Part shown: positions 2,573 to 36,090 of the stretch, piece by piece
How positions within the stretch are numbered: the stretch's first letter is position 1
How the letters are laid out: every line of letters starts with the position of its first letter
NCBI GenBank assembly: GCA_023251855.1
Contig: JAHEYA010000001.1
Coordinates: 1-36,145, forward strand
Direction of reading: 5' to 3'
Source: Bacteroidota bacterium
GTDB taxonomy: Bacteria > Bacteroidota > Bacteroidia > 2-12-FULL-35-15
Length of the DNA: 36,145 nt
Translations under genes and position numbers: made by a program
The notes under the pieces: generated by a model
Told to the model about the DNA's origin: nothing
Seen by the model: only the letters and a program-made list of their open reading frames with translations
Database searches by the model: none

Positions 2573-2580
2573 TAAATTTG
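2573..2580 (+). promoter_or_regulatory. Candidate -7 box (TAAATTTG) for rpiB
   Basis: Exact TAnnTTTG match 22 nt upstream of the rpiB ATG at 2603. Confidence 0.35.
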
Positions 2581-2602
2581 CTTTCTCAAAAATAAATTTC
2601 TA

Positions 2603-3025: not shown

Positions 3026-3130
3026 ACAGCCGGGTTTTAATAAGCAAACACACACACTATTAATAAGCAAAATCAACATACCAAATTCGCACAACCTTTT
3101 ATTGCATTAGGTATACTCGCCAGTTTCTTT

Positions 3131-4648: not shown

Positions 4649-4757
4649 AAAGCAAACATTCAATTTATGCTTTTAATCAACTGATTTGCGGATTTTTTTT
4701 TGCAAATTTGTTTTGCACAATAAGCTTTTATGGAATCGAAAATAAAATTTTTATTGA

Positions 4758-8447: not shown

Positions 8448-8550
8448 TGAATACAAGAGAGGAAATGTTCATTAGAGGAAGGCAGCTGATATCCGTATGT
8501 TAGGGCTGAAAATAGAACTGGTTTAAAGTTTTTTAACAAAATCATTTCCT

Positions 8551-10947: not shown

Positions 10948-11004
10948 CAAATGCCATATAAGTGAATATGGATTTTACAGGGACTTGTAAATTTTAATTT
11001 AAAA

Positions 11005-13209: not shown

Positions 13210-13215
13210 AGCAAT

Positions 13216-16200: not shown

Positions 16201-16803
16201 TGCAGCTAATAAAATATCCACATTATTATTCAAATGTCCTGATAGTTGTAAGTTTAAATTCGAATTAACTACTACATCTTGATTGTTACCAAATGAGAGT
16301 CCTCTTGAAATACTACCTGTTTTATTTAAGCCCTCCATTTTAAAAATGTCTTCATTTTTTGATTCTGCCGAATAACTAAAAGGGTTGTTATTACCAAATA
16401 GATCGGGCTTAATAAGGCTGTAGTCTTTGTGTTTTATTTCAGAAGAAAATAAATATGGAAATGTTTTATAAGAGACTTTTAAGCTGTCAACAACAAAAGG
16501 ATCGCCTTCTTCACGTTTTAGAAATGGCAGTAGGAGAGAGGAGTCAATTTTTTTTCGATCAAGTATTACCTGTGCGGTGGCATAATTTAAAGTGTAGAGT
16601 GTACTGTCCAACTTTGTTCCGTTAACAAGAGTAATTGTTACAGAGCCAGGAACAAGGCTAAGTGTATCAAGTTGAAGTGTGTCACTTTCAACTTTGTAGC
16701 GATTATATTTTTTCCCTTCCGGATAGCGAACCCTTCTGTTTTGGGCATATCCCATTGCTGAGAAAAAAAGCAACAACAAAAAAAATATTATTTTTCGAAC
16801 CAT
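13216..16803 (-). CDS. Large (1195 aa) predicted outer-membrane beta-barrel protein. I do not recognise the family.
   Basis: Signal peptide MVRKIIFFLLLLFFSAMGYAQ. There are long stretches of alternating-hydrophobic beta-strand-like sequence rich in N/S/Y/G (e.g. ITWGFSYQRNL, LQLSLTYDGRQ). The C-terminus is aromatic (GGAQVRAYF), which is typical of OMP barrels. Confidence 0.6.
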   Translation of the reverse strand: MVRKIIFFLLLLFFSAMGYAQNRRVRYPEGKKYNRYKVESDTLQLDTLSLVPGSVTITLVNGTKLDSTLYTLNYATAQVILDRKKIDSSLLLPFLKREEGDPFVVDSLKVSYKTFPYLFSSEIKHKDYSLIKPDLFGNNNPFSYSAESKNEDIFKMEGLNKTGSISRGLSFGNNQDVVVNSNLNLQLSGHLNNNVDILLAATDNNIPIQPEGNTQQLQEFDKVFIQLSNANTKLIAGDFQLTRPKSYFMNFYKKAQGLSFSTALKTGKENKNIKEQGLYTTSVNAAVSRGKFARNQLQGIESNQGPYRLRGAENEPFIIVLSGTEKVYIDGRLMDRGQENDYVINYNTSEITFTAKQLITKDKRIVVEFQYSDKNYARSLVHFGNDFEKDKLRLYLNIYSEQDSKNQPLQQNLTPQQKVLLSQIGDSLSLAVAPSSDSVAFSNNEVLYKKRDTLIGTQSYSIFIYSINSDSAHFRVAFSNVGLGKGNYKQIASSANGKVFQWIAPVAGVKQGNFEPVIQLITPHQKQMMTTGADYVFSENSKLSVEGALSKNDINTFSTADKKNDVGVGLKMNFDNIKSLGTEQQQTIDTSINSFVKLLTNVNYEYVQKYFSPVERYRSIEFERDWNRTSVTMIDDQHIVGAGLQLVKKGTGSIGYKFNSFLEGSNYNANKQFVNLNFKQKGFDLNYNSSLLNSTSSANSAFYRHKSGVSQKVKWVTIGIKDELEQNKFTLGKKDSLLANSYQFWEWQGYIQNSDTTKNRYGLNYKQRTDYAMKNLIASKGLNKSAFAESFGGFFELLQNPNNQLKINAAYRRLQIIDSALTMQKPDNSLVSRIEYNFRIWKGLLYSNSFYEIGSGLEVKKEFSYIEVAPGLGVYTWNDYNGNGIKELNEFEVATFPNTATYVKIYTPTLDYIKVYINQFSEQLMLKPAALWASKSGARKFISRFANQSAYRVDRKSSETDLTKAYDPFITVTDNPNLITLNSSFRNTLFINQMSPVLGIDLSYQDVRNKLLLVNGFDTRQNISKEVRLRWNMSQLFWWEINYKDGKKINTSQFFSVRNFSILYFEAAPKFNFQPTTAFRATASFKYSDKKNAAEYGSQRASIKDYGIEIKYNVLQKGSLNLKANLIQIQFNGTSNTSLAFEMMDALQKGKNITWGFSYQRNLSNNLQLSLTYDGRQSEGNPAIHTGGAQVRAYF

Positions 16804-21020: not shown

Positions 21021-22145
21021 ATGAATATCCAACACTTATTACAACGGGCTTTAAATTTCGAATTTTTATCAATCGAAGAAGGTGTTTTTTTATTCAAAAG
21101 CGCTCCAACAGCTGATTTGATGTTTGTTGCCAATGAGCTCCGTAAAATTCAAAAACCGGATGGAAAAGTTACTTGGCAGATTGATCGAAATGTAAATACA
21201 ACCAATGTATGTATCGCAAATTGTAAGTTTTGCAATTTTTATCGCATTCCAGGACATAAAGATGCTTACATAACAGATATTGCCACCTACAAGAAAAAAA
21301 TTGACGAGACGTTTCAATTAGGGGGTGATCAGCTTTTATTACAAGGTGGTCATCATCCCGGTTTAGGTTTAAAGTTTTATGTTGACCTTTTCAAAGAATT
21401 AAAAAGTTTATACCCGCATTTAAAACTTCATACACTCGGGCCACCGGAAGTAGCACACATTACCAAACTCGAAAAATCAACTCATGCTGAGGTTTTGAAA
21501 GCGCTGAAAGATGCAGGAATGGACAGCATGCCCGGTGCCGGTGCTGAAATATTGAATGACAGAGTACGTAGATTAATTTCAAAAGGAAAATGTACCGGTC
21601 GCGAATGGTTGGATGTAATGCGGGCTGCACACCAATTAAACATTACTACTTCAGCCACCATGATGTTTGGCCATATTGAAACTATTGAAGAACGTTTCGA
21701 ACATTTGGTACTGATACGTCAGGTGCAAAGCGAAAAACCGAAAGATGCAAAAGGGTTTTTGGCCTTTATTCCATGGACCTTTCAGGATGATGGAACTTTG
21801 TTAAGGCGCCATAAAGGAATTAAAAACAGTACTACTGGCGATGAATATATTCGTATGATAGCAATGAGTCGCATTATGCTACCCAATGTAATTAACATAC
21901 AAGCCAGTTGGCTTACTGTTGGTAAAGATGTCGCCAAACTTTGTTTGCATTCGGGTGCAAATGATTTTGGAAGTATTATGATAGAAGAAAACGTAGTATC
22001 GGCAGCAGGTGCTCCGCATCGCTTTACTGCCAAAGGAATTCAAGAGGCTATTCAGGAAGCTGGTTTTGAACCACAACTGCGAACTCAGCAATATGATTTC
22101 CGCGAATTACCTGCTGATATGGTGGAGCAGGTGATCAATTATTAA
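21021..22145 (+). CDS. Radical SAM enzyme of the MqnC/MqnE (CofH-like) family, i.e. futalosine-route menaquinone biosynthesis. I cannot discriminate MqnC from MqnE by eye.
   Basis: CxxxCxxC cluster motif CIANCKFCNFYR, preceded by QIDRNVNTTNV. 374 aa. GGDQLLLQGGHHP and FGHIETIEERFEHL are typical of this family. Confidence 0.7.
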   Translation: MNIQHLLQRALNFEFLSIEEGVFLFKSAPTADLMFVANELRKIQKPDGKVTWQIDRNVNTTNVCIANCKFCNFYRIPGHKDAYITDIATYKKKIDETFQLGGDQLLLQGGHHPGLGLKFYVDLFKELKSLYPHLKLHTLGPPEVAHITKLEKSTHAEVLKALKDAGMDSMPGAGAEILNDRVRRLISKGKCTGREWLDVMRAAHQLNITTSATMMFGHIETIEERFEHLVLIRQVQSEKPKDAKGFLAFIPWTFQDDGTLLRRHKGIKNSTTGDEYIRMIAMSRIMLPNVINIQASWLTVGKDVAKLCLHSGANDFGSIMIEENVVSAAGAPHRFTAKGIQEAIQEAGFEPQLRTQQYDFRELPADMVEQVINY

Positions 22146-22795: not shown

Positions 22796-24397
22796 TTAGT
22801 GACTGAAATTAGACGCAGCAACCGTTAAACCACCGGTAGACGCATTATTAGTTAACTGCCATGCAGTATTGTTTGCATAATCAATTGTAATGGATGATTG
22901 ATAAAAAAGGGGAAAAGTATTAGCCCCTCGCCAAAAAGTATTTCCTTTTATCGCAATATTCGCAAAGGTGGCTCCATTAGTGCTTGATGTTATTTTTATA
23001 CAATAGGCATCACTGGTTTGCATTCCAAAAAGATTATCAGCAATACTGTATATTTTAAAACCGGAAGTTGTAGGGTCGATATTAATAGGTGGCGTACTTG
23101 TATTTATACCGCTTCTGAATTGATTATTTGATATGGTTGCTTGATTGCAAACCTGAGTAGCATTGTTGATGAAAATGCTGCTGCTACTGCAACGGTTGCC
23201 GGCAAACACAAAATCGCTCTGGAGCGCATAGATTGAACTTGTACCAATATAACAACCTGAAATGTTTGAAATGGCACACTGGTTTACTGCTTCACTACCA
23301 ATGGTAGTGCCTGTTATGGAGGAACCCACAAACTCATTACATCTCGGAAGTGTACAGTTTGAAACAGAGGAGTGAACAACAGAACCTAACAAATAGGTGA
23401 ATCCGGTGGTAACTCCTGAAAACTGACAATTATCAAATTTGCTGTCGTATCCTAATCGTGGGCAATTGCCTGTGAACGTGCAATTAATGAATTCTCCCCA
23501 TTGACAATCCACATCAACAGCATTAAAAGTAACGCCATTAAAAACACAGCTATTCCCAACAGAAAGAATGTAAGTGCCATTTCCTGTGATAGTGCCACCG
23601 CTTACTACAAGGTGGTTTGCATTCAGTCCGGTGTAGTTTGCCCCAAGAGTTATCGTTCCCTGAACAAGTGCATAATTATCTGATGGAACAGTTATAGAAG
23701 TATAATTGGACAAGGTTAAAATATAGATGCCAGCGCCTGTAGCACCTGTTGCGCCCGTCATTCCACCACCCGGTCCTGTAGCACCAACAAAACCAGTTGT
23801 ACCGGTACCACCTGTACTTCCCGCACCGGGCCCTGTTGGTCCTGTTATGCCGGGAGATCCTGTTCCTGTAGCACCTGTACTTCCTGCACCTGTAGCACCA
23901 ACAGAACCTGTACCACCCATAGCACCTGTTGCGCCAGTGTTTCCTTTAATACCAGTTGCGCCAATAGCCCCTGCCGCTCCTGTAGCACCAGCAACACCAC
24001 CGTTTGAAGCAAATAAAGCATAAGGAACACTAAGTAATTGTTTGTTTCCGGTAATGCTGTAGGTTGTGCCACCTGTTGGGTCAGTTTCTGTTTTAATAAA
24101 AAATATTCCTGATGCCCAGTTGATCGCAGAAAAAACACCTGTAACAACTGTTCCAGTACCTATTTCAATTGTTGCAAGCCCATTGATATTTGTAGTTGTT
24201 GTTTGTGTTTCAACATAAACTGCTGTACCGGTTGAGCTACCTTGTAAAATACTTACCTTCATTCCAACACTTGTGCTTGCAACAAGAACATTGTTAGCAT
24301 TGCGTATAACAGCCTGGTAGCTCATTTTTTGCGGTGCCTGAGCAAAAGTGGACGTGATAATAAGCAGATTTGTTAATGTAACGATTAGGTTTTTCAT
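22796..24397 (-). CDS. Secreted collagen-like (Gly-X-Thr) repeat protein with a conserved N-terminal domain and a Cys-rich C-terminal region that looks like a parallel beta-helix
   Basis: Signal peptide ending TFAQ/AP. N-terminal domain [14 protein letters not shown]...SVPYALFA. About 90 aa of GXY triplets ([28 protein letters not shown]...). Repetitive NC.F / GN..S.SS.I turns follow ([37 protein letters not shown]). No T9SS tail is recognisable. Confidence 0.75.
23729..24001 (-). repeat. Collagen-like GXY triplet repeat (coding); a local GC-rich island
   Basis: aa 133-223 of the 533-aa protein. 13 uninterrupted GXY triplets are followed by interrupted runs. The opposite strand gives the artefactual PAPVAPV ORF. 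Confidence 0.85.
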
Positions 24398-24932: not shown

Positions 24933-25268
24933 TTAATCCACTTTTTCAACAACCACACCTGTGCCATAAGCAAGCACTTCGGTAAGGCCACTCATTACTT
25001 CATTTGCATCATATCGCATATTTATAATTGCGTTGGCTCCAAGTTCTTTACCATTTTTGATCATTAGCTGTAAAGCCTCTTCTCTGGCGTTTTCACACAG
25101 GTTGGTATAGATAGTGCTTTTACCGCCAAATAGGGTCATAAAACCACCTGCTATATTACCAATTACACTGCGTGAACGAACCGTAATGCCACGCACTAAA
25201 CCTAATTGTTTTTTGATACGGTAACCTTCAAGCGAAGTGCTTGTGGTTATTAATGTTGAATTGTCCAT
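24933..25268 (-). CDS. YbjQ/UPF0145-family protein (putative heavy-metal-binding domain)
   Basis: 111 aa. Motifs GYRI...LGLVRGITVRSRSV, G..GG....Y..L...AREEAL..M...A.ELGANAII.MRYD, and AYGTGVVV. Confidence 0.88.
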   Translation of the reverse strand: MDNSTLITTSTSLEGYRIKKQLGLVRGITVRSRSVIGNIAGGFMTLFGGKSTIYTNLCENAREEALQLMIKNGKELGANAIINMRYDANEVMSGLTEVLAYGTGVVVEKVD

Positions 25269-25291: not shown

Positions 25292-25687
25292 TTATTTCTT
25301 CTTAATAATTTTTGAGGCAATAAAAGCAAACAATCCTAAAACAAGCCCAGAAATCAATCCAACGACTGGTCCCGTCATTAAAATCATCAACCGTGGTGCA
25401 TCAGGCATTGGCATTCTAGTCATCATTGTAGCTTCTTCCGCATGGTTAGCAATGTAGGAATCAAATAAAATAATGTGAGCAGCAGTGATCCAAACAGCAT
25501 TTACTAAACTCACAAAGAGGCCATGTAAAAAATATTTTCCGGTGCATTGCTTTGCTATGATGTAGGCACAAACAATAAAAATAACCAACCAGAACAATGG
25601 TTCGATATTGGAAGGAATAAAATAAACGGTTGCAATTGCCATTGCTAAACCGAAAAGCGAAAGTTGGAAGATTAATTTTTTGTTCAT
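25292..25687 (-). CDS. Hypothetical small integral membrane protein (about 4 TM helices)
   Basis: 131 aa with four hydrophobic segments and a C-terminal KIIKKK. I recognise no family. Confidence 0.55.
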   Translation of the reverse strand: MNKKLIFQLSLFGLAMAIATVYFIPSNIEPLFWLVIFIVCAYIIAKQCTGKYFLHGLFVSLVNAVWITAAHIILFDSYIANHAEEATMMTRMPMPDAPRLMILMTGPVVGLISGLVLGLFAFIASKIIKKK

Positions 25688-25860: not shown

Positions 25861-26613
25861 TCACTTGCGCTTTTTTATCAACTCTAAAATTCCATTGATA
25901 AATGTAAGAGGATGAATAGGGTTTCCCGGAACATATAAATCAATTTTGTATTTACTTAAAAAACGTCTGTTCAGTGCAGGACTTCCTTCAAATATTCCCC
26001 CGCTGATGGCATCTATGCCGGCGAGAATAATAATTTTTGGTTCAGGAGTTGCGTCATAACAGATTTGTAGCGGCTCTGCCATATTTTCTGAAACAGAACC
26101 TGTGATTACAATTCCATCTGCATGGCGGGGCGAAGCAACAAATTCAATTCCGAAACGACCCATATCAAAGTTCACATTGCCGCAAGCGTTCAGTTCCAAC
26201 TCACAACTGTTATCGCCTCCTGCTGATACTTGTCTTAACTTTAAAGAGCCACTGAAATATTCAAAAGTTTCTTTTCGAATCAAATCAGGATTTAATTCAA
26301 TCGGCTTATCCTCTCCTTCTCTAATAATGAGTCGTTCTCTTTCGTTAGAGGAAATTTTATAATCGGTTGTAAATTTTATTTTGTTAGGAAAAGCAAAAGC
26401 ACATTCGCCACAAAATGTGCATTTACCCAAATCAATTTTAACAGGACTTGTGTTGATTGCTCCTGTGGGACATAAATCTACAAGTTCCTGCTCATTCACT
26501 TTTTCAGAACTTATTATAGGTCTGCCCCGAAAAATTCCAGGCACCTCTGCTTTCGTTATATCGGGGATATATTGTTTTCCCTGATGAAAAAGTATTTTAA
26601 TATTTTTAATCAT
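25861..26613 (-). CDS. Fusion of a single-cluster ferredoxin remnant (HycF/NuoI-like) to a HycG/NuoB-like small subunit that lacks the canonical proximal [4Fe-4S] ligands
   Basis: The N-terminus has LCPTGAI ... CTFCGECAFAFP. The C-terminal part aligns to HycG: RFGIEFVASPRHADGIVITG and PEPKIIILAG. Three cluster motifs are altered: VDCGGCNGCE has become VSAGGDNSCE, GACGNSGG has become GIDAISGG, and PGCPP has become PGNPI. Confidence 0.82.
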   Translation of the reverse strand: MIKNIKILFHQGKQYIPDITKAEVPGIFRGRPIISSEKVNEQELVDLCPTGAINTSPVKIDLGKCTFCGECAFAFPNKIKFTTDYKISSNERERLIIREGEDKPIELNPDLIRKETFEYFSGSLKLRQVSAGGDNSCELELNACGNVNFDMGRFGIEFVASPRHADGIVITGSVSENMAEPLQICYDATPEPKIIILAGIDAISGGIFEGSPALNRRFLSKYKIDLYVPGNPIHPLTFINGILELIKKRK

Positions 26614-26624
26614 TTTTTTACTTT

Positions 26625-28121
26625 TTACAAATCATGTCCGCAATAAGATAAATCAAAACTTTTGTTGCAAATTGGAAAATCAGAAATTTCATTGTTGCGA
26701 ACAGCCAAAGCCAAAGCCAGCCAGTTGTGCATGGATGGATCTTTCACTTTGTAGTGTACCAGTTCGCCTTTTTCATCCGTGATAGCACAATGACAAATTT
26801 CTCCCCGCCATCCTTCCACCAATGAAATGACAAATGAATCAGATGAAGGAGGAGATAAAATAGTTCGATTCTTATTTTCTGAAGGAATATTCTCTGATAA
26901 TTTTCTGATGTATCCTATGGATTGTTTTATTTCTTCTTTTCGTATTTGCGCTCTTGAATAAACATCTCCGTGATTTTTAATAATCGGCTGATGATTTAAT
27001 GAAGAATAAAAATTGTGGGGATGTGATGAGCGAATATCCCGATTAATGCCACTCATTCTTGCCGACATTCCCACTGTACCGATGGATGACGCCTGTTCGG
27101 TTGTTACAATTCCTGTTTTTTCAAATCGCGCAAGCACAGTAGGCAAAGTAAATGTTTCTTTGCACATCTCATCAAAGTCGGGCTCATAATCGTCAAAAAG
27201 TTTATGAAGTGTATCACATAATGTTTTATGAAGAGGAAAATGATTTTTTCCTGCACGGATCAACCCTTTTGCAAGGCGGTTTCCGCACCATATTTGAAAA
27301 TAATTTATAACAGGTGTGCGTAACCTTCCGAAAACAGAACTTCCGAGTTGGTATGCAACATCCGTACACATAGCGCTCAAATCGCCTGTGTGAATAGCTA
27401 TGCGTTCTAACTCCAACGCAACTGTTCTTGCGTATTGCAACTCTTCATCTGCTTTGTAATTACATAAACTTTCCCAGAGATTAACGAAACAGGTGGTGTG
27501 TCCGGAAACTGCGTCACCTGAAATGTTTTCGGCAAGTGTGATGCGTTGCAATAATTTTTTCTTTTCAAGAAATAAGTTTTCAATTCCCCGATGCTGAAAT
27601 CCTAATTGAATTTCCAAATGAAGAATCTGTTCTCCGTTGCAGATGAAGCGGAAATGACCAGGTTCAATTACTCCTGCATGAATGGGACCTACCCCTACTT
27701 CGTGCAGCTCTTCGCTTTCAATTTTGTAAAATGGATAATTAGCAACTGTGGAATTTTTATCTGCTCTGTTGAATGAAAAACGTGTAGGTTTAAGCCAGGT
27801 GTGATCGGTGTAATTAATACCAAAATTTTCGTGAATCTCTCTTTCAAAAATGTGAAAAGCAAGGTGATGGTGTGTGAACGAAGAAAGTGTTTGATGTTGT
27901 TCAACTATAGAAGATGAAATATAAATAGTTCCTTCTTTATCATTTGCTATGCAGCAAATAAGTTTAATTTTTCCTTGAAAACGAAATCCATAATAGTTTA
28001 CGCAATGATAATGCGATTCCTTGAGCAGAGAAGTATTATGTTCCAGAAACTGCTCGTATCCTAACACAGGAATAGAGAGTACAGGAATACATTGATTATT
28101 TTTTACTTCGAGGTGATTCAT
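26625..28121 (-). CDS. HycE/HyfG/NuoCD-like 'large subunit' (fused NuoC-like and NuoD-like domains) lacking all four [NiFe] cysteine ligands
   Basis: NuoC-like segment FEREIHENFGINYTDH. Large-subunit core VGVGPIHAGVIEPGHFRF...LHLEIQLGFQHRGIE. The L1 motif position reads LAENISGDAVSGH (HycE: LAERVCGICGFAH). The C-terminal L2 position reads SFDLSYCGHDL (HycE: SLDPCYSCTDR). Confidence 0.85.
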   Translation of the reverse strand: MNHLEVKNNQCIPVLSIPVLGYEQFLEHNTSLLKESHYHCVNYYGFRFQGKIKLICCIANDKEGTIYISSSIVEQHQTLSSFTHHHLAFHIFEREIHENFGINYTDHTWLKPTRFSFNRADKNSTVANYPFYKIESEELHEVGVGPIHAGVIEPGHFRFICNGEQILHLEIQLGFQHRGIENLFLEKKKLLQRITLAENISGDAVSGHTTCFVNLWESLCNYKADEELQYARTVALELERIAIHTGDLSAMCTDVAYQLGSSVFGRLRTPVINYFQIWCGNRLAKGLIRAGKNHFPLHKTLCDTLHKLFDDYEPDFDEMCKETFTLPTVLARFEKTGIVTTEQASSIGTVGMSARMSGINRDIRSSHPHNFYSSLNHQPIIKNHGDVYSRAQIRKEEIKQSIGYIRKLSENIPSENKNRTILSPPSSDSFVISLVEGWRGEICHCAITDEKGELVHYKVKDPSMHNWLALALAVRNNEISDFPICNKSFDLSYCGHDL

Positions 28122-28122
28122 A

Positions 28123-29553
28123 TTAGTGCGGTAAATTTTTTATTGCATCGTTAATTAAATCGATAAATTCGGCCGGAGGATTAAAACCGAGATAAATAAC
28201 TAATCCAAGCAGGACAAACTGAGAAATGGATTCGTACCATTTTATTTTTTCTACCTCTTCATCATTAAATTCAACAGCAGGTGTGAACAAAAGTTTGAAA
28301 ATATTTTTCCCGAAGGCCCATATAATGATAGTGAGCAAAATCAAAAGAACAATCAGAACAAAAAGATAATGAGCTTCAAACAGCGATCTGAAAATCATAA
28401 ACTCGCTGATAAAAAGCCCCGATGGCGGCATAGCGGCACTACAAAAAAAGGCAAGCAATAATACCATTGCACCTGCGAGATTATATTTAAAATAATTTCC
28501 AACATCGTAAATGCTTTTGCTTTTATAGATGCGATAAACTTGTCCCATCTGAAAAAACATACTTGATTTCGCAAAAGCGTGCAAGATAATATGAAGAATA
28601 GCGGCATAATAACCAATTCCGCCTGCAACTAAACCAAGCATAACGATCCCTGCGTGTTCAATACTGGAATATGCCAGCATCCGTTTAATATTTTTTACTT
28701 TGAGCATATACACTGCTGAGACAAAAACAGAGAGCAAAGCCGCAATCATTATAATATGATTCGCCCACAAATGGAGTGAGGTGTGTGCAATTATTTCATA
28801 GAAGCGGAATATTCCTATGAATCCTACATTCATCAACACACTTCCCAAAAGCGCACCAGCAGGTGATGGGGCTTTATCTTTTGCGTCAATGCCCGCTGTA
28901 TACATTGGTACGAGACCAAGTTTTGCGGTATATCCTGTAAAAATGAAAATGAAAGCCAAACGAAGCCAAAAGATATTCAGACCACTCGCATTATTCAATA
29001 AATCAGGGAATGAAAGATCGGTGTGACCCGCCTGCTGTAAAGCGATACTGAGAAATAATATGCCTATAAAAACAAAAGTGATACTGATGGAACAAACAAA
29101 AATATATTTCCAGGTACCTTCTAGTGTACGGCTATTTCTTCGGTGGTAAATTAATGCAGAAGCGGAAAGTGTTGTCAGCTCGACAAAAATCCAAGTTACT
29201 GCTACGTGATTGGAAAGATATGCTGCGCTGATTGCAGCGATCAGCATGGTCATTGCAGAAAAATAAATTCCACGTTGTTGAGGGATGTCTTTGTGTTTAA
29301 GAAAATAAACATAACTGTGGTAATATGCAGGAATTGAAATAATGCTGAGCGTAATCAGCAGTAGAATTGACAATGCATCGGGTTTGAAGAAGCCGAAGAA
29401 CTCATCAACGTTGCGGTGATTGTATTCATAGGCTGTGAAAGCACATTGTCCGGTTATAAAAATTGCAACAAGCATATAATTCAGCAAACGGTTCCTGTTT
29501 AAAAACAACAGTGCGCTGATAATGATTGCTCCTGTTAAATATTCTGCTATCAT
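28123..29553 (-). CDS. Antiporter-like membrane subunit (HyfF/HyfD / NuoN/NuoM / MrpD family)
   Basis: 476 aa and polytopic. Motifs WIFVELTTLSASALI (TM5 Glu), GYTAKLGLVPMY (TM7 Lys), and LHAFAKSSMFF (TM8 Lys). Confidence 0.85.
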   Translation of the reverse strand: MIAEYLTGAIIISALLFLNRNRLLNYMLVAIFITGQCAFTAYEYNHRNVDEFFGFFKPDALSILLLITLSIISIPAYYHSYVYFLKHKDIPQQRGIYFSAMTMLIAAISAAYLSNHVAVTWIFVELTTLSASALIYHRRNSRTLEGTWKYIFVCSISITFVFIGILFLSIALQQAGHTDLSFPDLLNNASGLNIFWLRLAFIFIFTGYTAKLGLVPMYTAGIDAKDKAPSPAGALLGSVLMNVGFIGIFRFYEIIAHTSLHLWANHIIMIAALLSVFVSAVYMLKVKNIKRMLAYSSIEHAGIVMLGLVAGGIGYYAAILHIILHAFAKSSMFFQMGQVYRIYKSKSIYDVGNYFKYNLAGAMVLLLAFFCSAAMPPSGLFISEFMIFRSLFEAHYLFVLIVLLILLTIIIWAFGKNIFKLLFTPAVEFNDEEVEKIKWYESISQFVLLGLVIYLGFNPPAEFIDLINDAIKNLPH

Positions 29554-29561
29554 ATTATTTT

Positions 29562-30191
29562 TTAATCTTTCAGATTTTGTAATTGTTCCACATCCACATC
29601 TTTCAGCACATCTCCTATTTTGTTTACAAAAATTCCAAGAACAAGAACGCTTACAAAAAGGTCGAGCAGTATCCCGGTGTTCACCAACATAGGCATTTCA
29701 TTTCCTACGGCAAGCGACAAAATAAAAACGCCATTTTCGATGACCAGGAATCCCATCACATGTGTGATAATTTTTTTTCTAGTGATGATGATGTACAACC
29801 CAGTGAATAATGAGGAAAATGCTACCACAAAATAAATTTTATTTAAGTGTGGGTCCTCAATTATATTAGAAAGCAGGAAGGTAACAATGATGATGAACGT
29901 TACAATGATCAGGGATATAAAATTGGGCAGAAAAGGTTCTACTTCGCGGGTAATTCTGTTTCGCCTTATGATATAATTCAGTAAAAGGGGAACTGCAATG
30001 GTTTTAAAAACAATGGTTTCAAATAAAATAAAAATAAGGTTCAGGATGTTTATTTCTTTCAATTCGATAAAACTCACTCCGAATAAAAGAAGTCCCTGAA
30101 AGACAAGTATCTTAATGTAACTGCCCATACGATTGGCAATGCTGAGATAAATCAGCGTCATTGCAAAAGTGATTAGTAAAACATTGATCAT
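29562..30191 (-). CDS. HyfE-like small membrane subunit (hydrogenase-4 component E / NuoK-related)
   Basis: 209 aa. RKKIITHVMGFLVIENGVFILSLAV compares with E. coli HyfE RNILRQIFGYCLMENGSHLVLALL. The C-terminal VDVEQLQNLKD compares with LDVNNLTALKG. Confidence 0.8.
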   Translation of the reverse strand: MINVLLITFAMTLIYLSIANRMGSYIKILVFQGLLLFGVSFIELKEINILNLIFILFETIVFKTIAVPLLLNYIIRRNRITREVEPFLPNFISLIIVTFIIIVTFLLSNIIEDPHLNKIYFVVAFSSLFTGLYIIITRKKIITHVMGFLVIENGVFILSLAVGNEMPMLVNTGILLDLFVSVLVLGIFVNKIGDVLKDVDVEQLQNLKD

Positions 30192-30198
30192 AGTTTTT

Positions 30199-31104
30199 TT
30201 AAATAAATTTCCCTATTACCATCAAAACTCCAAAAAATATCATCAGGGCAACAGAAGTTAGTGTGAAAATAAATTGTGCATTATGATTCATTCGGAATCG
30301 TGCCGAGAAGGATTCAAGGATACCTACAATCACAGCAAAGATTATCTGGACCGCAAAGAATATAGGTATTGTCAAGTACATTTGAAAATTGGCAATAAAA
30401 AAATTTGCAATGAGCGCACCGTACATGGCAAATTTCAGGTTGGTAGCGAACAGAATTAACCCCAAATCAAAACCGCTATTGTCAAGAATCATCACTTCGT
30501 GAATCATCGTTAATTCAAGATGTGTTTTCGGGTCGTCAATAGGCATACGGCTGTTTTCAATCATCGCAATCATTATCAAAATGAATGTTGCCAGAACTCC
30601 AAGCGCATACGAGATGTATGAGCCAAAGTGCAATGAAATAAAAATGTCATGGAAGGAAGTGTGTCCGGTGAATAAAGCAAACGAACCCATCAAAATAAAA
30701 AATGCAGGCTCAGCCAACATAGAATACAATGCTTCGCGACTTGCTCCTATTCCTTCAAAACTGCTTCCTGTATCCATTGCCGAAATGATAGAGAAAAATT
30801 TACCAAGTGCAAGAACATATGCGAAAAAAACAAAATCACCTTCAAAAGAAATAATTCCTTTGTATTGCCCGAAGGGAATTACCAGGATCGCCATCAGCAC
30901 GGAAGCGAAATAAATGCTGGGGGCGATCTGAAAAACAAAACTGGTTGTTTTACTGTACACCGCATCTTTTTTCCACAAGCGTATAACGTCCTTCATGGGC
31001 TGAAATATCCCCGGACCCTTTCTCCCTGAAGCAATGCTTTTTGTCCGGATAATAATACCCATGAAAAATAAACTTGTAATAATTATCAAAGCAAAACTTA
31101 TCAT
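30199..31104 (-). CDS. NuoH/HyfC/HycD-like membrane subunit
   Basis: 301 aa with about 8 TM helices. The N-terminal signature is RTKSIASGRKGPGIFQPMKDVIRLWKK (NuoH-type R.GP...QP..D..KL..K). Confidence 0.85.
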   Translation of the reverse strand: MISFALIIITSLFFMGIIIRTKSIASGRKGPGIFQPMKDVIRLWKKDAVYSKTTSFVFQIAPSIYFASVLMAILVIPFGQYKGIISFEGDFVFFAYVLALGKFFSIISAMDTGSSFEGIGASREALYSMLAEPAFFILMGSFALFTGHTSFHDIFISLHFGSYISYALGVLATFILIMIAMIENSRMPIDDPKTHLELTMIHEVMILDNSGFDLGLILFATNLKFAMYGALIANFFIANFQMYLTIPIFFAVQIIFAVIVGILESFSARFRMNHNAQFIFTLTSVALMIFFGVLMVIGKFI

Positions 31105-31105
31105 A

Positions 31106-33139
31106 TTACAATTGATTTAAAAATTTCATTAATGATATTATTGCTCCATACAAAAATGGTAGTCCTATGACTAATGTAATAAAAATAAAGCCATACAGTA
31201 TGTAGAATTGCGGGTTGCCATTTTGCAGAAAACGAAATTTCCCAAAAAAATATTTCATCTGCTTAATCGGAATATCAATTAATAATTCTTCCATTTTATC
31301 CTGAGGGTGGGTTTCGTAGGAACTTTTTTCAGGGAAAATACTTTTTATCAACACCTCCTTTTTATGAATAGATAAAAACGGTTTGGCAAGTTTGCGGTAA
31401 GTACGAATAAAAGAATTTGCAGTGTACTGCATTTTCGCTGTATTGCCAACATACCCACATCCCCAAGTGGTTGCAAACGATTCCGGCTTTTGCTTTGTAA
31501 TTTGTTTACGGGTAAAAAAGATAATTCCCGCCAGCGAAATAAATCCCATAGCGCACCATCCGATGTATTGCATCGTGTACGCTATATCAGAAACGGGCGG
31601 CATCGTTTCTGTTGCAACAGATAATTTATCCTTAAATAATTTCAGCGGTTCAGATAACCAGTGAAGAAAAAAAATCGGGAATAAACCGATAGCAACAATT
31701 AACCCCATTACCAGATACATCGGAATAAGTTTTGCAGTATTTGCTTCGGATGGCTGATGAGAAAAACTGTGTTGTGGGCTGCCGAGAAATACCACACCGA
31801 ATGCCTTGGTAAAGCATAAGAGCGCAAGTCCGCCAATAAGTACCAATCCAAAAACAGAGGACAAAAGCGACAATGTTGAAAACAGATTTCCATGATTCAT
31901 TCCCTTGAACAAACCAAAATAAATCAAAAACTCAGAGGCAAATCCGTTAAATGGAGGGAGCCCGCATATAGCAAGTGCTGCAACCAGAAATAAAACAGAG
32001 GTGTGAGGCATTCGTTTCGCTAATCCGCCTAAGTGTTCAATATTCATCGTATGAGTAGACTGGTAAACATTGCCGGATCCATAAAACAAAAGTGATTTAA
32101 ACAGTGAGTGATTTAATACATGAAGCATAGCTCCGGCAAACCCGAGAGTTGTAAGAAGAAAATTATTTGTTCCAATCCCTATTGTTCCTAATCCTATTCC
32201 AATTCCAATGATTCCGATGTTCTCAATGCTGTGGTAGGCAAGAAGTTTTTTCAGATTATGTTGAACGATTGCGAGCATCACTCCGTAAATTCCTGAAACA
32301 ACAGAAATAAAAAGGATAATAAAACCTAATAAAACATAATCCGTTTTGATCAATAGAATCATTCGAAGGATTCCGTAAATGCCAATTTTGATAATCACTC
32401 CGGACATAATCCCTGAAACATGCGAAGGTGCAGCAGGATGTGCATAAGGAAGCCAGGTATGAAACGGAACAAATCCCGCCTTGATTGCAAATGCAGTGAA
32501 GAAGCAAAGAAACAAAGCCAAACTTGTGAGCGGAGGAAAAGAAGTTGAGAATTCGGTGATCGCTCTGAAGTCATAGGAATTCATCCGTGTTCCTACCCAT
32601 ATAAAACCAAGATAAAGAAACACCATGCTTACATGCGCCTGAATTAAATAATTGACCCCTGCTTTTATACAATCTTGTTTATAATGTTCAAAAATTATCA
32701 AAAAGAAGGACGACAATGCCATAATTTCCCATGCGAATAGAAATACAATTGCATTTTGCACAACACAGATTATTGTCAGCGCAGATTGAATTCCGAGATA
32801 TGCAATGCAATGGAGAGTAATATTTGAAGATTGTTCCCTGTAGGATCTCATATATTGCAAACCGTACAATGCACCTGTGATCATTGTGAAATTAATGAGC
32901 AATATAAACCATCCTGAAAGCCCATCAATCCGAATTGGAATTTCGCCTGTTACAAAAGTCCCCTTTAAAATAAACTCTATCTTATCACCAAGTAATGCTT
33001 TCACTGAAATAATACCCCCGATGACTGCAATCAGGATTACTGTCAAAAGAGTTACTATTCCCTTCCATTTTACGTTGAGAAAAGGAATCAGCAGAATGCT
33101 TATTGCAACAATCAACAGAGATATCGCAATCATTACCAT
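31106..33139 (-). CDS. Antiporter-like membrane subunit, HyfB/HycC/NuoL/MrpA family (copy 2)
   Basis: 677 aa. Motifs AWEIMALSSFFLI, FAIKAGFVPFHTWLPYAHPAAPSHVSG, LNHSLFKSLLFYGSG, and TWGCGY in the C-terminal extension. Its start codon overlaps the upstream stop (ATGA at 33137-33141). Confidence 0.88.
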   Translation of the reverse strand: MVMIAISLLIVAISILLIPFLNVKWKGIVTLLTVILIAVIGGIISVKALLGDKIEFILKGTFVTGEIPIRIDGLSGWFILLINFTMITGALYGLQYMRSYREQSSNITLHCIAYLGIQSALTIICVVQNAIVFLFAWEIMALSSFFLIIFEHYKQDCIKAGVNYLIQAHVSMVFLYLGFIWVGTRMNSYDFRAITEFSTSFPPLTSLALFLCFFTAFAIKAGFVPFHTWLPYAHPAAPSHVSGIMSGVIIKIGIYGILRMILLIKTDYVLLGFIILFISVVSGIYGVMLAIVQHNLKKLLAYHSIENIGIIGIGIGLGTIGIGTNNFLLTTLGFAGAMLHVLNHSLFKSLLFYGSGNVYQSTHTMNIEHLGGLAKRMPHTSVLFLVAALAICGLPPFNGFASEFLIYFGLFKGMNHGNLFSTLSLLSSVFGLVLIGGLALLCFTKAFGVVFLGSPQHSFSHQPSEANTAKLIPMYLVMGLIVAIGLFPIFFLHWLSEPLKLFKDKLSVATETMPPVSDIAYTMQYIGWCAMGFISLAGIIFFTRKQITKQKPESFATTWGCGYVGNTAKMQYTANSFIRTYRKLAKPFLSIHKKEVLIKSIFPEKSSYETHPQDKMEELLIDIPIKQMKYFFGKFRFLQNGNPQFYILYGFIFITLVIGLPFLYGAIISLMKFLNQL

Positions 33140-35148
33140 CAGACGAAATTAAATAACGTTCCTAAAAATACCAAGATAAAAAAAAACACTCCATACAATA
33201 CATACATCTGTATTTTACCATTCTGAATGAATTGAAAATAGTTCAGACTAAACAACAAACGGTTTGTGAAACGATAAATAATATTGTTTTCAAAAAAATC
33301 AATATAATGAGATGTATGACTTCTTGTTTGCGGAAAGATTTCATGAGGTGCAAGTTCGGTATATTTTTTCTTCTCCGTTACAATAAACCACAGTAATTTG
33401 CCCAGTGTTTTTGAAAAAGATTTACCCGTGAACTGCATCTTGCTGTAAGGCGCAACATAACCGCAGCCCCAGGTAGTATTTAGCTGAGCAACGCGATTTC
33501 GGGTAAATAAGTTCCGAATAAGAAAAACTAATATCAGCAGAATTAAAAACATCAAAGAATATTTTCCGACCTCGGCAATTAATGATATTGTTGGTACCAT
33601 TGATTGAAAGATGGAAACATCGGATCGTTGTATGGATGGAACAACCGAATTAATGATACAGAGCAGAACAGAAAAATAAAACTGCGGGAACAAACCTATG
33701 GAAAGCATAATCAGGATGATTAAAAATTGCGGTATGCGCATTATCAAAGAAACTTCGGTAGGTGTGTGATGAAATTCTTCGCGCAGGTTTCCCAAAAATA
33801 GGATTCCAAAACTTTTTGTAAATGTAAGCAACGATAACCCGCCAATGATAGCCAATCCCGACAGAGAAAGAATCATCAATACAGAATGAAACAATCCCAT
33901 TGTTTTTATTCCATTCAAGAATCCCATATAGATTAAAAATTCAGAAACAAACCCATTGAAAGGCGGCAGACCGCCAATAGCAAGCGCGCCTATAAGAAAC
34001 AACACAGCGGTTTGTGGCATCTTATGAACTAAACCGCCAAGTTTTTCCATATCGCGGGTGTGTGTTTGCTGATAAACAGAACCTGCAGAAAAAAACAAAA
34101 GCGATTTGAAAAGCGAATGATTCAGAGTATGTAACAAAGCACCGCTTAACCCGATAACGAGTAGTAAAGGATTATTCAGTCCCATCCCGATTAATGCAAG
34201 GCCAATTCCTGCTCCGATGATTCCAATATTTTCAATCGTGCAATACGCCAGCATTTTTTTTAAATCCCGGTGAACGGCAGCATTCAGGATTCCGTAAACC
34301 CCAGTTATTATCGAAAGAATCAAAAGCGATTCGCCAATCAACATCAAATCATTTTTCAGCATCAATGCTACACGGATAATTCCATAAATGCCAAGTTTGA
34401 CAATTACTCCCGACATCACTCCTGAAATATGTGAAGGAGCAGCAGGATGAGCGTGAGGAAGCCATGAGTGCAGAGGAATAAATCCCGCTTTGATTCCAAA
34501 GCCGATAAAAAATAAAAGAAACAACCAGAAGTTTGAATTGGCATTGAAAAAAATTCCAATTGAATAAAAATCACATGAACCTTCGGAGAAATACACCCAA
34601 AGAAATGCGATTGTTAAAAACACAACTCCGATGTGCATTTGCACTAAATAATTCATTCCCGCCCTGAGTGTTTGTTTGTTACTATGTTCAAATATTACAA
34701 GTAAAAAAGAGGAGAGCGACATCAGTTCCCAAGCAATGAGAAACGCCAAACTATGCTGGAGCATACAAACCCATAACATTGATGATTGAAAAATCAAAAA
34801 TAAAATCCAGTGCAGTGAAAGATTTGCTTTTTGTTCACTATAGGATTTCATATAACCAATACCGTATAGCGCACCATTAATGCAAGTCAGGTTTATTATC
34901 AGCATAAACCACGCTGATAACGCGTCTATCCGTAATGGAACATTTCCGAAAAAAGGAGGGCCTGCAATAATCATTTCAAACGGATTTCCAATGAGAACAT
35001 TTACAGCAAGAATGGAAGTAACAGAAGCAATAAACAAAACAAAAATGAAATTAATAACTGCTTTTATTTTGGAAGGGAATAGTGGAATTAAAACAATGCC
35101 CACGCTTGTTAAAATTAAAGATGAAACCACCAACTGAACACTTCCCAT
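33139..35148 (-). CDS. Antiporter-like membrane subunit, HyfB/HycC/NuoL/MrpA family (copy 1)
   Basis: 669 aa. Motifs AWELMSLSSFLLV, GFGIKAGFIPLHSWLPHAHPAAPSHISG, LNHSLFKSLLFFSAG, and TWGCGY. It is a paralog of the following gene. Confidence 0.88.
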   Translation of the reverse strand: MGSVQLVVSSLILTSVGIVLIPLFPSKIKAVINFIFVLFIASVTSILAVNVLIGNPFEMIIAGPPFFGNVPLRIDALSAWFMLIINLTCINGALYGIGYMKSYSEQKANLSLHWILFLIFQSSMLWVCMLQHSLAFLIAWELMSLSSFLLVIFEHSNKQTLRAGMNYLVQMHIGVVFLTIAFLWVYFSEGSCDFYSIGIFFNANSNFWLFLLFFIGFGIKAGFIPLHSWLPHAHPAAPSHISGVMSGVIVKLGIYGIIRVALMLKNDLMLIGESLLILSIITGVYGILNAAVHRDLKKMLAYCTIENIGIIGAGIGLALIGMGLNNPLLLVIGLSGALLHTLNHSLFKSLLFFSAGSVYQQTHTRDMEKLGGLVHKMPQTAVLFLIGALAIGGLPPFNGFVSEFLIYMGFLNGIKTMGLFHSVLMILSLSGLAIIGGLSLLTFTKSFGILFLGNLREEFHHTPTEVSLIMRIPQFLIILIMLSIGLFPQFYFSVLLCIINSVVPSIQRSDVSIFQSMVPTISLIAEVGKYSLMFLILLILVFLIRNLFTRNRVAQLNTTWGCGYVAPYSKMQFTGKSFSKTLGKLLWFIVTEKKKYTELAPHEIFPQTRSHTSHYIDFFENNIIYRFTNRLLFSLNYFQFIQNGKIQMYVLYGVFFFILVFLGTLFNFV

Positions 35149-35171
35149 AACTTTTTTATTCCCGTTATAAA

Positions 35172-35252
35172 TTATTTATTGAATTTACTTTCGGCAAAAA
35201 TAATTTCTTTCATAATTCTTTCTTTGATTTTTGACCATTGGTTTTCGGTCAT
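35172..35252 (-). CDS. Possible 26-aa small ORF (MTENQWSKIKERIMKEIIFAESKFNK) 23 nt upstream of the first antiporter-like gene
   Basis: ATG at 35250-35252 and TAA at 35172-35174. It is below the ORF-track size cutoff. There is no homology support, and a candidate -7 box (35195-35202) lies inside it. Confidence 0.12.
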   Translation of the reverse strand: MTENQWSKIKERIMKEIIFAESKFNK

Positions 35253-35262
35253 AAATTGGATG

Positions 35263-35463
35263 CTAAAATACTGTTTTATTCTTGTTTTTGTTTTCTTGTA
35301 TGTAGGATGATTTGGCTCTTTTGATTTTACCCCCTGAGGTTAGTTTTGTGGTTGGTTGGGCAAAGGCAAATGTGTCAAATGCACGACTGTTAAAGAAGTT
35401 TTCAAAAATGTGAAGTGAGTTTTTTTGTTTTTGTCTTTTGCTGGGGTTTGCGAAGTGGCGCAT
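35263..35463 (-). CDS. Possible 66-aa basic, low-complexity small protein, or else a non-coding leader of the Ehr-like operon
   Basis: The ORF begins about 10-15 nt downstream of a TATCTTTG -7 box (35481-35488). The sequence is K/N/Q-rich and I recognise no family. Confidence 0.2.
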   Translation of the reverse strand: MRHFANPSKRQKQKNSLHIFENFFNSRAFDTFAFAQPTTKLTSGGKIKRAKSSYIQENKNKNKTVF

Positions 35464-35480
35464 TAAACTGTCTCACCGCA

Positions 35481-35488
35481 CAAAGATA
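35481..35488 (-). promoter_or_regulatory. Candidate -7 box (TATCTTTG on the - strand) that could drive the Ehr-like operon through a leader of about 320 nt
   Basis: Plus strand reads CAAAGATA. The octamer is identical to the box in front of the radical SAM gene at 20998-21005. Confidence 0.3.
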
Positions 35489-35685
35489 ATTAATTGAAAC
35501 GAACTTTGATTTTATAAGGAAATCCGCATTGTACACATAAACTGTCTATGCCGGTGGTGTGTCTTGTCTTATGAAACGATTGTCGAGGTCGGTAATCATT
35601 TTAAAATGACGATCAATAACTCTGCCGATCCAATATAATTAAGCCCGCTTTAATAATATGTTAAACATCAAAAAACACAAAAAAT

Positions 35686-36090
35686 TTACTTAATATCCTT
35701 CATCCGATGTGCGAGCAAATTAAAAAAATTGCCAAGAGGCTTGACTACCATCATTTTCAACATGGGGTTTAAATCCGATTCAAAAACAATTTGCCCGGTA
35801 CAATTGTTTGCATCTTTTGTAGTGATATAAATAAACAGATGAAATTCAAATGGAACCTTGCCATTGGAGTTAATTGTGATTTTTGAAGAAGGTGTTTTTT
35901 CAATTATTTTCATTCCAATAGTTGCCATGCCATTGAGTGTAAATGAACACTCTTCGGATGTGGAGGTCCAGTTTGTAACCTGCGAAGGCATTAACTTTTC
36001 GAAGTTTTTAAAATCACTTAAATAGTTGAAAATGTTTTCTGCGGAATTGTTGATCTCAACTATTTCGCTATCAATTTTTGTTAACGACAT
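35686..36090 (-). CDS. SRPBCC-superfamily (START/polyketide-cyclase-like) ligand-binding protein
   Basis: 134 aa. The N-terminal pattern EINNSAENIFNYLSDFKNFEKLMPSQV is typical of SRPBCC proteins. Beta-rich core and C-terminal helix are inferred from the sequence pattern only. Confidence 0.55.
   Translation of the reverse strand: MSLTKIDSEIVEINNSAENIFNYLSDFKNFEKLMPSQVTNWTSTSEECSFTLNGMATIGMKIIEKTPSSKITINSNGKVPFEFHLFIYITTKDANNCTGQIVFESDLNPMLKMMVVKPLGNFFNLLAHRMKDIK

Follow-up and report, generated by a model that had tools for sequence, protein, structure and literature searches.

The window, as we call the whole 36,145-nucleotide stretch of DNA analyzed here (Bacteroidota bacterium, assembly GCA_023251855.1, contig JAHEYA010000001.1, positions 1 to 36,145), encodes on its reverse strand a seven-gene operon of the Hyf type (35148-25861). 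Two HyfB-like genes are followed by HycD-like, HyfE-like, and HyfF-like genes and then by genes for a large and a small subunit (Table 1); at the junctions that were checked, neighboring genes overlap by 1 nt at one extreme and are 11 nt apart at the other. An earlier note, made from the DNA and its translated open reading frames (ORFs), had described the large subunit as a "hydrogenase large subunit" with none of the four cysteines that bind the [NiFe] site. Our analysis agrees, and indicates that the protein is very probably a maintained subunit of a complex of the Ehr family, not a hydrogenase; in addition, the partner small subunit lacks three of the four cysteines expected for the proximal [4Fe-4S] cluster.

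Table 1. Coordinates of the operon genes and of the motifs discussed in the text
Feature	Position	Strand	Size, match, or remark
HyfB-like antiporter-like subunit, copy 1	33139..35148	(-)	669 aa; Pfam Proton_antipo_M 3.7e-55
HyfB-like antiporter-like subunit, copy 2	31106..33139	(-)	677 aa; Pfam Proton_antipo_M 2e-56; key Glu/Lys present
HycD/NuoH-like membrane anchor	30199..31104	(-)	301 aa; Pfam NADHdh 3.6e-31
HyfE-like small membrane subunit	29562..30191	(-)	209 aa; NCBIfam hydrogenase 4 membrane subunit 2.3e-16; Oxidored_q2 (NuoK-like) 2.5e-05
HyfF-like antiporter-like subunit	28123..29553	(-)	476 aa; Pfam Proton_antipo_M 9.8e-41
EhrL-like large subunit, fused NuoC-like and NuoD/HycE-like	26625..28121	(-)	498 aa; without [NiFe] ligands
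Beta1-beta2 loop GPIHAGVIEPGHFRF, including E153 (HycE E193)	27645..27689	(-)	Invariant across 77 sequences
N-terminal ligand-motif remnant S201-G202-D203-A204 (HycE: C-G-I-C)	27510..27521	(-)	Translation and alignment
C-terminal ligand-motif remnant and C-terminus SFDLSYCGHDL, then TAA	26628..26660	(-)	Translation and alignment
EhrS-like small subunit, N-terminal HycF/NuoI-like ferredoxin remnant plus HycG/NuoB-like domain	25861..26613	(-)	250 aa; Pfam Oxidored_q6 4e-19 and Fer4
Sole complete four-Cys set, C48(P)...C65xxC68xxC71	26401..26472	(-)	Enough for one [4Fe-4S]
D134-N-S-C137 where the proximal site has C-x-x-C	26203..26214	(-)	D134 93% in clade; C137 20/28
D201 at third proximal-cluster Cys	26011..26013	(-)	100% Asp in clade; Cys in all 38 CCCC-type relatives
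N231 at fourth proximal-cluster Cys (PGCP to PGNP)	25921..25923	(-)	

Ligand positions in the large and small subunits

Pfam recognizes a Complex1_49kDa domain (2e-32) and, weakly, a Complex1_30kDa domain in the large subunit. Its best match among Protein Data Bank (PDB) chains is HycE of Escherichia coli formate hydrogenlyase (FHL) (7z0s_E, E=1e-31, residues 128-494 of the query; HMMER), followed by MbhL of Pyrococcus furiosus (6cfw_L, 1e-28) and then by fused NuoCD and Nqo4. An AlphaFold2 model computed with 18 sequences (mean predicted local distance difference test [pLDDT] score 63.8, adequate for matching the fold, not for the geometry of the pocket) has the same HycE chain as its top Foldseek match (TM-score 0.71). 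In sequence and in fold alike, HycE, MbhL, and NuoCD lead the solved relatives, HycE and MbhL being the closer ones.

The HMMER alignment pairs lsdrvCGICgfaH of HycE with laenisgdavsgh and sldpCys with sfdlsyc, and alignment by MAFFT with E. coli HycE, HyfG, and NuoCD maps C241 of HycE to S201, C244 to A204, C531 to S492, and C534 to G495, leaving no cysteine at any of the four ligand positions. The single nearby cysteine, Cys494, aligns with HycE Ser533 and is therefore off the ligand register. Where [NiFe] hydrogenases have RxCGxCxxxH the protein reads LAENISGDAVSGH, with the final His alone retained, and where they have DPCxxCxx(H/R) it reads DLSYCGHDL. The terminal residue, L498, pairs with HycE R537, which we take to be the cleavage site of the maturation protease; HycE and HyfG extend further, and the window protein has no C-terminal extension of the kind that the endopeptidase HycI removes once the metal is inserted. 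The replacement of CGIC by SGDA, the C-to-S and C-to-G changes in the C-terminal motif with a cysteine one position away, and the end of the protein at this motif had all been described in the earlier note and hold in translation and alignment. Its fold-signature strings are likewise present, and GPIHAGVIEPGHFRF is essentially invariant family-wide. The HycE N-terminal motif was placed correctly in that note but misquoted: the E. coli motif is LSDRVCGICGFAH, which starts LSDRV, not LAERV.

Across full-length orthologs the substitutions at the C-terminal motif are fixed (S492 and G495 in 77 of 77), as is G202-D203 (77 of 77), and the N-terminal ligand positions vary, with A, C, S, or T in the S201 column and T, S, or A in the A204 column. 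A cysteine ligand set is found in none of the aligned large subunits that span both motifs, nine of which have a cysteine at the first position. The Cys494 column holds Cys in 65 of 80 family members and Ser or Ala in some (about a fifth of the orthologs). All aligned large subunits share a signature consisting of E-x-[IV]-[AC]-G-D-[ST]-x-x-[GA]-H and a C-terminal KSFNLSYCGxDL followed by the stop codon.

A large subunit without these cysteines is a known, defining trait of Ehr complexes, and the observation itself is not new. [quoted passage not shown] Both features are found here, the neighbors of the cysteine-less subunit being NuoB-like, NuoH-like, and antiporter-like (NuoL/M/N, HyfB/E/F). 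Members have been reported in Nitrospira (PMC10284858), Sulfobacillus (PMC4378227), bacteria of the candidate phyla radiation (CPR) (PMC7304191), and Melainabacteria, Margulisbacteria, Spirochaetes, and Lentisphaerae (PMC6349859), and their function is described as unknown (PMC10284858, PMC4378227, PMC7304191, PMC6349859); Elusimicrobia have been reported to carry them as well. The proteome of Geobacter sulfurreducens contains EhrA, EhrC, EhrL, and EhrS (GSU0739-45), at higher abundance on formate (PMC7894505). Our own comparison was with a metagenome-assembled genome (MAG) of Geobacter sp. (L055; related loci are numbered with the prefix L); its large subunit is 40% identical, and it has the same motifs and the same operon.

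The small subunit resembles MbhJ (6cfw_J, 5e-22) and HycG (7e-18), and its N-terminal 100 residues align with HycF, HyfH, and NuoI. In this ferredoxin remnant the first motif keeps only its fourth cysteine, and the second keeps its first three, the fourth being Phe. The resulting four-Cys set is present in 28 of 28 members of the Bacteroidota clade and in 66-67 of 68 small subunits overall. We provisionally take it, from the ligand assignments in Nqo9, to be the equivalent of N6b, the cluster adjoining N2. No further set of four conserved cysteines occurs in the large or the small subunit.

To our knowledge, the proximal cluster is present in every structurally characterized relative. In the window, the proximal ligand columns, as aligned to MbhJ and HycG, read D134, C137, D201, and N231, where the small subunit of a [NiFe] hydrogenase has four cysteines; nor does the protein have the tandem cysteines of an N2 site, three of the four ligand positions being non-Cys. 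Among 67 small subunits, 38 have all four cysteines (CCCC), comprising those of all non-Bacteroidota phyla and of two Bacteroidota loci, and 28, all from Bacteroidota, have the D/(C)/D/N pattern, in which the remaining cysteine is replaced by Y, T, A, D, or H in 8. The Bacteroidota loci concerned are the window, L001-L031, and L060. In a rough neighbor-joining tree the cluster-less loci group together as one clade, interrupted only by the CCCC locus L022. This Bacteroidota MAG lies inside the clade in the large-subunit tree, yet its small subunit has four proximal cysteines and both ferredoxin motifs complete; the cause may be exchange of a subunit or an artefact of the tree.

We considered whether the loss is unique to the Bacteroidota clade and rejected this: about 35 of the 150 nearest representatives (50%-identity representatives out of 1.84 billion sequences searched) have non-Cys residues in the proximal columns (Asp, Glu, Ser, or Asn, often as D-x-D-(N/S/D)). 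In a very divergent cluster-less lineage (L087) the large subunit shares only 24% identity with that of the window; it is also cysteine-less and also ends at the position of the cleavage site (...SVASHDR). The Ehr-like operon of this lineage (L087 5416-12720; also L088) has an altered gene order with HyfB last. Judged from these sequences, loss of the proximal cluster is recurrent or ancient. In FHL, oxygen sensitivity resides in the proximal cluster and the [NiFe] site (PMC9474812). The literature searched, which did not extend to the two founding reports by Coppi (2005) and Marreiros et al. (2013), gives no prior account of cluster-less Ehr small subunits.

Coupling residues, conservation, and selection

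Residue roles were taken from the FHL structure (PMC9474812) and mapped onto 77 large-subunit sequences. The proton donor of the beta1-beta2 loop, HycE E193 (PMC9474812), is kept as E153 and the canopy arginine, HycE R478, as R439, each in all 77; the proton path is kept as H244 (HycE H284; 75 of 77), R355 (R395; 73 of 77), and E397 (E437; 77 of 77). Other pocket positions are altered. HycE D192 is Ile152 and I243 is Asp203 in every sequence, the Pro of the HycE PRG motif is Trp438, and the column of canopy Asp529, termed "strictly conserved" (PMC9474812), holds Asn in 65 of 77, the window having Asp490. New family invariants are N486, K487, D461, S463, D247, D254, N273, E170, H107, H140, and C161; those at or near the ligand positions and specific to the family are D203, S492, G495, W438, N486, K487, and D461.

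In the HycD-like subunit the glutamates E124, E132, and E183, equivalent to HycD E130, E138, and E189, are conserved, and the loop between transmembrane helices (TM) 5 and 6 is near-invariant in Ehr yet remodeled, with D191/H195/H202 against HycD L197/E201/Q205. The three antiporter-like subunits, HyfB-like copy 1 among them, retain TM5 Glu, TM7 Lys, TM8 Lys, and TM12 Glu, except that TM8 has Asn in the HyfF-like subunit, as it does in E. coli HyfF. On the residues mapped, the coupling machinery looks intact, and the pocket looks remodeled instead of abandoned. In the earlier note the protein was read as maintained, with its pocket put to a new use, and not as a pseudogene in decay; maintenance is shown by the conservation and selection analysis below, and these substitutions are consistent with repurposing.

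Among the membrane subunits, the first HyfB-like copy matches the NCBIfam model for hydrogenase 4 subunit B (9.8e-150) and the HyfF-like subunit that for subunit F (7e-64), each under the model cut-off; the two HyfE-like matches in Table 1 are also under their cut-offs. The HyfB-like genes form a tandem duplication (31106-35148, reverse strand) with a 1-nt overlap and 46% identity between the copies; relatives have one or two, and copy 2 is the one kept in nearly all related loci. The GC fraction is flat at about 0.36 along the window, so the operon is not a recent import. No Rfam model, riboswitch and leader RNA included, matches anywhere in the window at the gathering threshold; a snoRNA match upstream of the operon (35100-35720, E=0.42) was dismissed as chance, and counts from promoter and terminator scans do not differ from those in shuffled sequence.

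At 70-80% identity to the large subunit there are more than 120 protein clusters, and all the named ones are from Bacteroidota. A scan of one genome per species yielded at least 599 confirmed matches, with the same operon in at least 80 species of Bacteroidota, Spirochaetota, Melainabacteria, Desulfobacterota (including Geobacter), Planctomycetota, Verrucomicrobiota, Myxococcota, Omnitrophota, and others; among the matches listed, about 80 loci have their genes in this order. Across the 77 orthologs, with identity down to 38%, 99 columns are at least 95% conserved. The ratio of nonsynonymous to synonymous substitution rates (dN/dS) was taken from closer pairs among the related loci. In the unsaturated pair L010/L020 (dS 0.5-0.9) it is 0.052 for the large subunit, which answers the check for purifying selection proposed in the earlier note, and 0.008-0.06 for the other subunits; further pairs give 0.02-0.07. 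Between the window and its closest ortholog with DNA available (L085, 80% identity), dS is saturated (1.3-4.7), and the dN/dS of 0.03-0.11 is only rough, though consistent. The whole operon is under strong purifying selection.

Fragmented operon ORFs occur in 3 of 80 related loci (L008, L017, and L049). The frameshifts hit several operon genes, operon-wide in L017 and L049 and in the upstream HyfB/HycD genes in L008, while similarity is still 40-73% and the flanks are not clearly more fragmented. At least two of the three appear to be long-read assemblies, and the fragmentation is either long-read assembly error or recent loss in a few genomes.

Neighboring genes and possible function

In 83 related loci, the large- or small-subunit gene was searched together with as much as 10 kb of DNA to either side of it. 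No match to HycI, HycH, HypA, HypB, or NuoE/F/G was found in the window or in these loci, and HycB/HyfA matches fell only on the ferredoxin domain of the small subunits themselves; the rest of the window has no hyp, hycI, hycH, hycB/hyfA, fdhF, or nuoEFG gene. A formate dehydrogenase or NuoEF partner, as proposed in the hypothesis that links formate dehydrogenase to Ehr, was sought and rejected, there being none within 10 kb in the 83 loci. No neighbor genes are conserved among loci of the Bacteroidota clade; two that lie 3' of the window operon, orf131 (25292-25687) and a YbjQ gene (24933-25268), occur beside none of 80 related operons.

Several relatives have recurrent neighbors. In 11 CCCC-type loci (L035, L037, L044, L045, L061, L062, L070, L071, and L076-L078) a gene of about 230 codons combining HTH_17 and PTS_EIIA_2 domains lies directly upstream of HyfB on the same strand, which suggests EIIA(Ntr)-style regulation. 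SulP/STAS transporters adjoin the operon in six loci (L019 17974-20289, L028 12417-14090, L062 2330-4237, L063, L071 2573-4372, and L010 138-1781); in L062 and L071 the genes form a tight SulP-EIIA-Ehr array. A PF02641 (DUF190) gene, a family we take to be PII-like, opens the divergent operon of L087 (4958-5419) and, similarly, that of L088; in L087 a second copy (13529-13906) precedes an MFS transporter downstream, and a Usp gene follows the operon. The recurrent neighbors of Ehr in relatives are regulatory or transport genes, not redox partners, and lend circumstantial support to the redox-independent translocation proposed below. In L085 the operon, with one HyfB, lies between paaABCD on the opposite strand (2169-4819) and a PaaE-like reductase gene with FNR and Fer2 domains (12297-13361), which starts 35 nt past the small subunit on the same strand and most simply belongs, as PaaE, with the neighboring paaABCD genes.

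Elsewhere in the window, a radical SAM gene of the MqnC/CofH type (futalosine route to menaquinone; 21021-22145, forward strand) stands 3.7 kb away from the operon, which is on the other strand. Three successive large sensor proteins (4758-13209, forward strand) each end in a SpoIIE/PP2C phosphatase domain, one with Reg_prop and Y_Y_Y repeats and two with TPR repeats. Two reverse-strand ORFs, of 1195 aa (13216-16803) and 533 aa (22796-24397), match no Pfam family; the latter has a weak NCBIfam match to an adhesive fibre N-domain and adjoins a protein with a type IX secretion system (T9SS) tail, and Pfam finds T9SS sorting domains among the window proteins, which, together with the public names of near-identical proteins, place the window in Bacteroidota.

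We think it probable, if far from certain, that the operon encodes an Ehr complex that has lost both the [NiFe] site and the proximal cluster and has kept its ion-coupling elements; that it translocates ions independently of redox chemistry is the likeliest single mechanism, though at less than even odds. Without a proximal cluster there would be no electron wire to the old active site, and the Bacteroidota version would be unlikely to work as a redox-driven pump of the kind seen in membrane-bound hydrogenase (MBH), FHL, or complex I; the missing cluster makes redox-driven pumping improbable. Successive cluster spacings in complex I are roughly 10 Å plus 12 Å, so electrons could hardly pass from the remaining cluster to the pocket at a physiological rate. 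Protons or cations might instead move in a gradient-driven, Mrp-like manner or under the control of a ligand. The polar pocket (D203, S492, K487, and D461, with D191/H195/H202 of the HycD-like subunit) could be an ion- or proton-binding or regulatory site, the Asp/Asp/Asn site an ion-binding, structural, or regulatory element, and the single [4Fe-4S] cluster structural or a sensor. It is possible, although on balance doubtful, that the cluster-less Ehr lineages, with Asp/Asp/(Asn, Ser, or Asp), form a full complex-I-type coupling machine without redox chemistry in the pocket. Such a "redox-free complex I" would keep the peripheral arm, the three-loop interface, the E-channel, and three antiporter-like pumps, and would act as a gradient-driven or ligand-gated translocator or as an energy-coupled transporter or regulator tied to SulP, PII-like, or EIIA partners.

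Several points weigh against a redox-independent complex. The loss of the cofactors is itself inferred from ligand residues, and a few proteins have Asp as an Fe-S ligand. Conservation of the four-Cys ferredoxin site points to persisting redox or sensing chemistry, as does the retention of the proximal cluster in most non-Bacteroidota relatives. The FNR-type NAD(P)H:ferredoxin reductase gene 35 nt past the small subunit in L085 is a possible electron donor. The segments of the large-subunit model that form the pocket (residues 110-205 and 462-498) have pLDDT values below 50. Mrp antiporters need MrpE/F/G-type subunits; no window protein matched these families in Pfam or NCBIfam, so "Mrp-like" is only an analogy.

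If Ehr is a redox-driven ion pump, as is usually assumed, then a ferredoxin, an FNR-like reductase, or a formate dehydrogenase would reduce the remaining [4Fe-4S] cluster, and electrons would pass to an acceptor such as menaquinone or a sulfur compound at or near the pocket, perhaps by way of a non-cysteinyl metal site formed by D134/C137/D201/N231. Oxidoreductase partners have been hypothesized for Ehr (PMC6349859), and the abundance of the Geobacter proteins on formate (PMC7894505) fits such a role, as do the unbroken conservation of the ferredoxin cysteines in the clade (28 of 28), the two- or three-cluster chain of relatives outside it, the FNR+Fer2 gene directly downstream in L085, and the MqnC menaquinone gene in the window. 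We nonetheless consider a persisting redox pump unlikely: Asp, Asp, and Asn occupy three of the four proximal ligand positions and the fourth is variable (Y/T/A/D/H), the quinone-site His/Tyr of NuoD are missing, no donor module recurs beside the operon in 80 loci, and the L085 reductase is most simply PaaE. A more specific idea, an energy-coupled device for anions or inorganic carbon loosely analogous to DAB or NDH-1MS, in which the complex would support bicarbonate or sulfate transport by SulP or carry out vectorial hydration in the pocket, is quite improbable. It would draw together the same-strand SulP/STAS genes in L019, L028, L062, L063, and L071, including the two tight arrays with EIIA, the PF02641 genes and MFS transporter of cluster-less L087/L088, and the invariant Asp, His, and Lys gained in the pocket and the HycD loop; however, the association, absent from the window, is seen in only about 6 of 80 loci, the Pfam and NCBIfam matches include no carbonic-anhydrase-like domain, and the case is wholly circumstantial.

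The three remaining explanations concern the large subunit itself. The top NCBIfam models are those for NuoD (1.8e-43, far under their cut-offs), and public annotation names the protein NADH-quinone oxidoreductase subunit C or NADH dehydrogenase subunit, as might be expected of a quinone-reducing subunit of an alternative complex I. The earlier note had proposed looking for the quinone-site His and Tyr, and neither is present: the columns of NuoCD H224 and Y273 hold invariant Ile152 and Gly202 (77 of 77 each). Together with the missing N2 site (no N2-type tandem cysteines and no N2 cluster), this largely refutes a NuoD-like role, which is very improbable also because HycE and MbhL are nearer relatives and no NuoA, NuoJ, or NuoEFG genes are present. 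That the catalytic cysteines are all gone, and that the operon is fragmented in 3 of 80 loci, might also mark a decaying relic of formate hydrogenlyase, but the ORF is intact and tightly packed with its neighbors, dN/dS is about 0.05, the 99 near-invariant columns include the substituted positions, homologs are detected as proteins in Geobacter (PMC7894505), and the fragmented loci have several frameshifted genes, at least two of them apparently in long-read assemblies; selection and near-invariant columns across phyla exclude a pseudogene for practical purposes. Hardly any weight can be given, finally, to a cryptic [NiFe] hydrogenase with non-canonical ligands such as Cys494, Asp203, or His208. 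One cysteine does lie a single position off register, and the canopy Arg, loop Glu, and proton path are kept, but Cys494 is Ser or Ala in about a fifth of orthologs, four thiolates occur at no position, there is no protease-cleaved extension and no hyp or hycI gene nearby, and no proximal cluster would deliver electrons.

By itself, the cysteine-less large subunit adds an uncharacterized Bacteroidota member to a known family whose complexes are widespread, expressed, and strongly selected. Annotation pipelines mislabel the family as "Ni,Fe-hydrogenase III large subunit" or "NADH-quinone oxidoreductase subunit C," and such genes should not be counted as hydrogenase or complex I in metabolic reconstructions of Bacteroidota MAGs. 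The clade-wide loss of the proximal cluster sharpens the question of Ehr function without answering it. Because the [NiFe] site and the proximal cluster are gone while the ion-coupling elements are kept, it raises a tractable question, namely whether a complex-I-type machine can run without terminal redox chemistry and what would drive it; a natural "redox-free complex I," if it exists, would isolate conformational coupling for study.

Comparison with related complexes

The closest likeness is to the Ehr complexes of G. sulfurreducens and others, in which a cysteine-less large subunit is clustered with NuoB-, NuoH-, and NuoL/M/N-like genes; loci from Geobacter, Melainabacteria, Spirochaetota, and Lentisphaerota share the E-x-[IV]-[AC]-G-D-[ST] motif and the NLSYCGxDL-stop C-terminus. 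The window differs in its duplicated HyfB, and its Bacteroidota clade in the absence of the proximal [4Fe-4S] ligands, all four of which are kept by the other phyla in the set.

With the group 4a [NiFe] hydrogenases of E. coli, hydrogenase 4 (FHL-2, HyfA-J) and hydrogenase 3 (FHL-1, HycB-G), the operon has in common the order HyfB-C-(D)-E-F-G-(H)-I, the fused NuoC-NuoD-like large subunit, to which HycE is nearest by sequence and fold, and the loop Glu, canopy Arg, and His/Arg/Glu proton path. Unlike them, it has no Ni/Fe ligands, C-terminal extension, HyfA/HycB, HycH/HycI, or proximal site; what is left of HycF is joined to the small subunit and has ligands for one cluster, and the canopy Asp, present in the window, is Asn in most Ehr. 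P. furiosus membrane-bound sulfane reductase (MBS; MbsL/MbsJ) offers a precedent, being a hydrogenase-derived relative of complex I that lacks a [NiFe] site and is a working ion-translocating enzyme (PMC7684303). MbsL, however, keeps two of the four cysteines, and catalysis takes place at a three-Cys proximal [4Fe-4S] cluster (PMC7684303), whereas the window has none of the four large-subunit cysteines and one variable cysteine at the proximal site.

Complex I (NDH-1; NuoCD/NuoB, or Nqo4/Nqo6) shares the fold, the position of the pocket, the absence of [NiFe] ligands, and the His/Arg/Glu proton path; the window differs in having no quinone-site His/Tyr, N2 cluster, NuoA/J, or N-module. Mrp antiporters (Mnh/Pha) share NuoL/M/N-like and NuoK-like subunits with the same Lys and Glu residues. 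They have MrpE/F/G and no NuoH-like anchor or peripheral arm, and the window operon is the reverse; Mrp nevertheless works without redox chemistry, which is the behavior that we propose for the complex encoded in the window.

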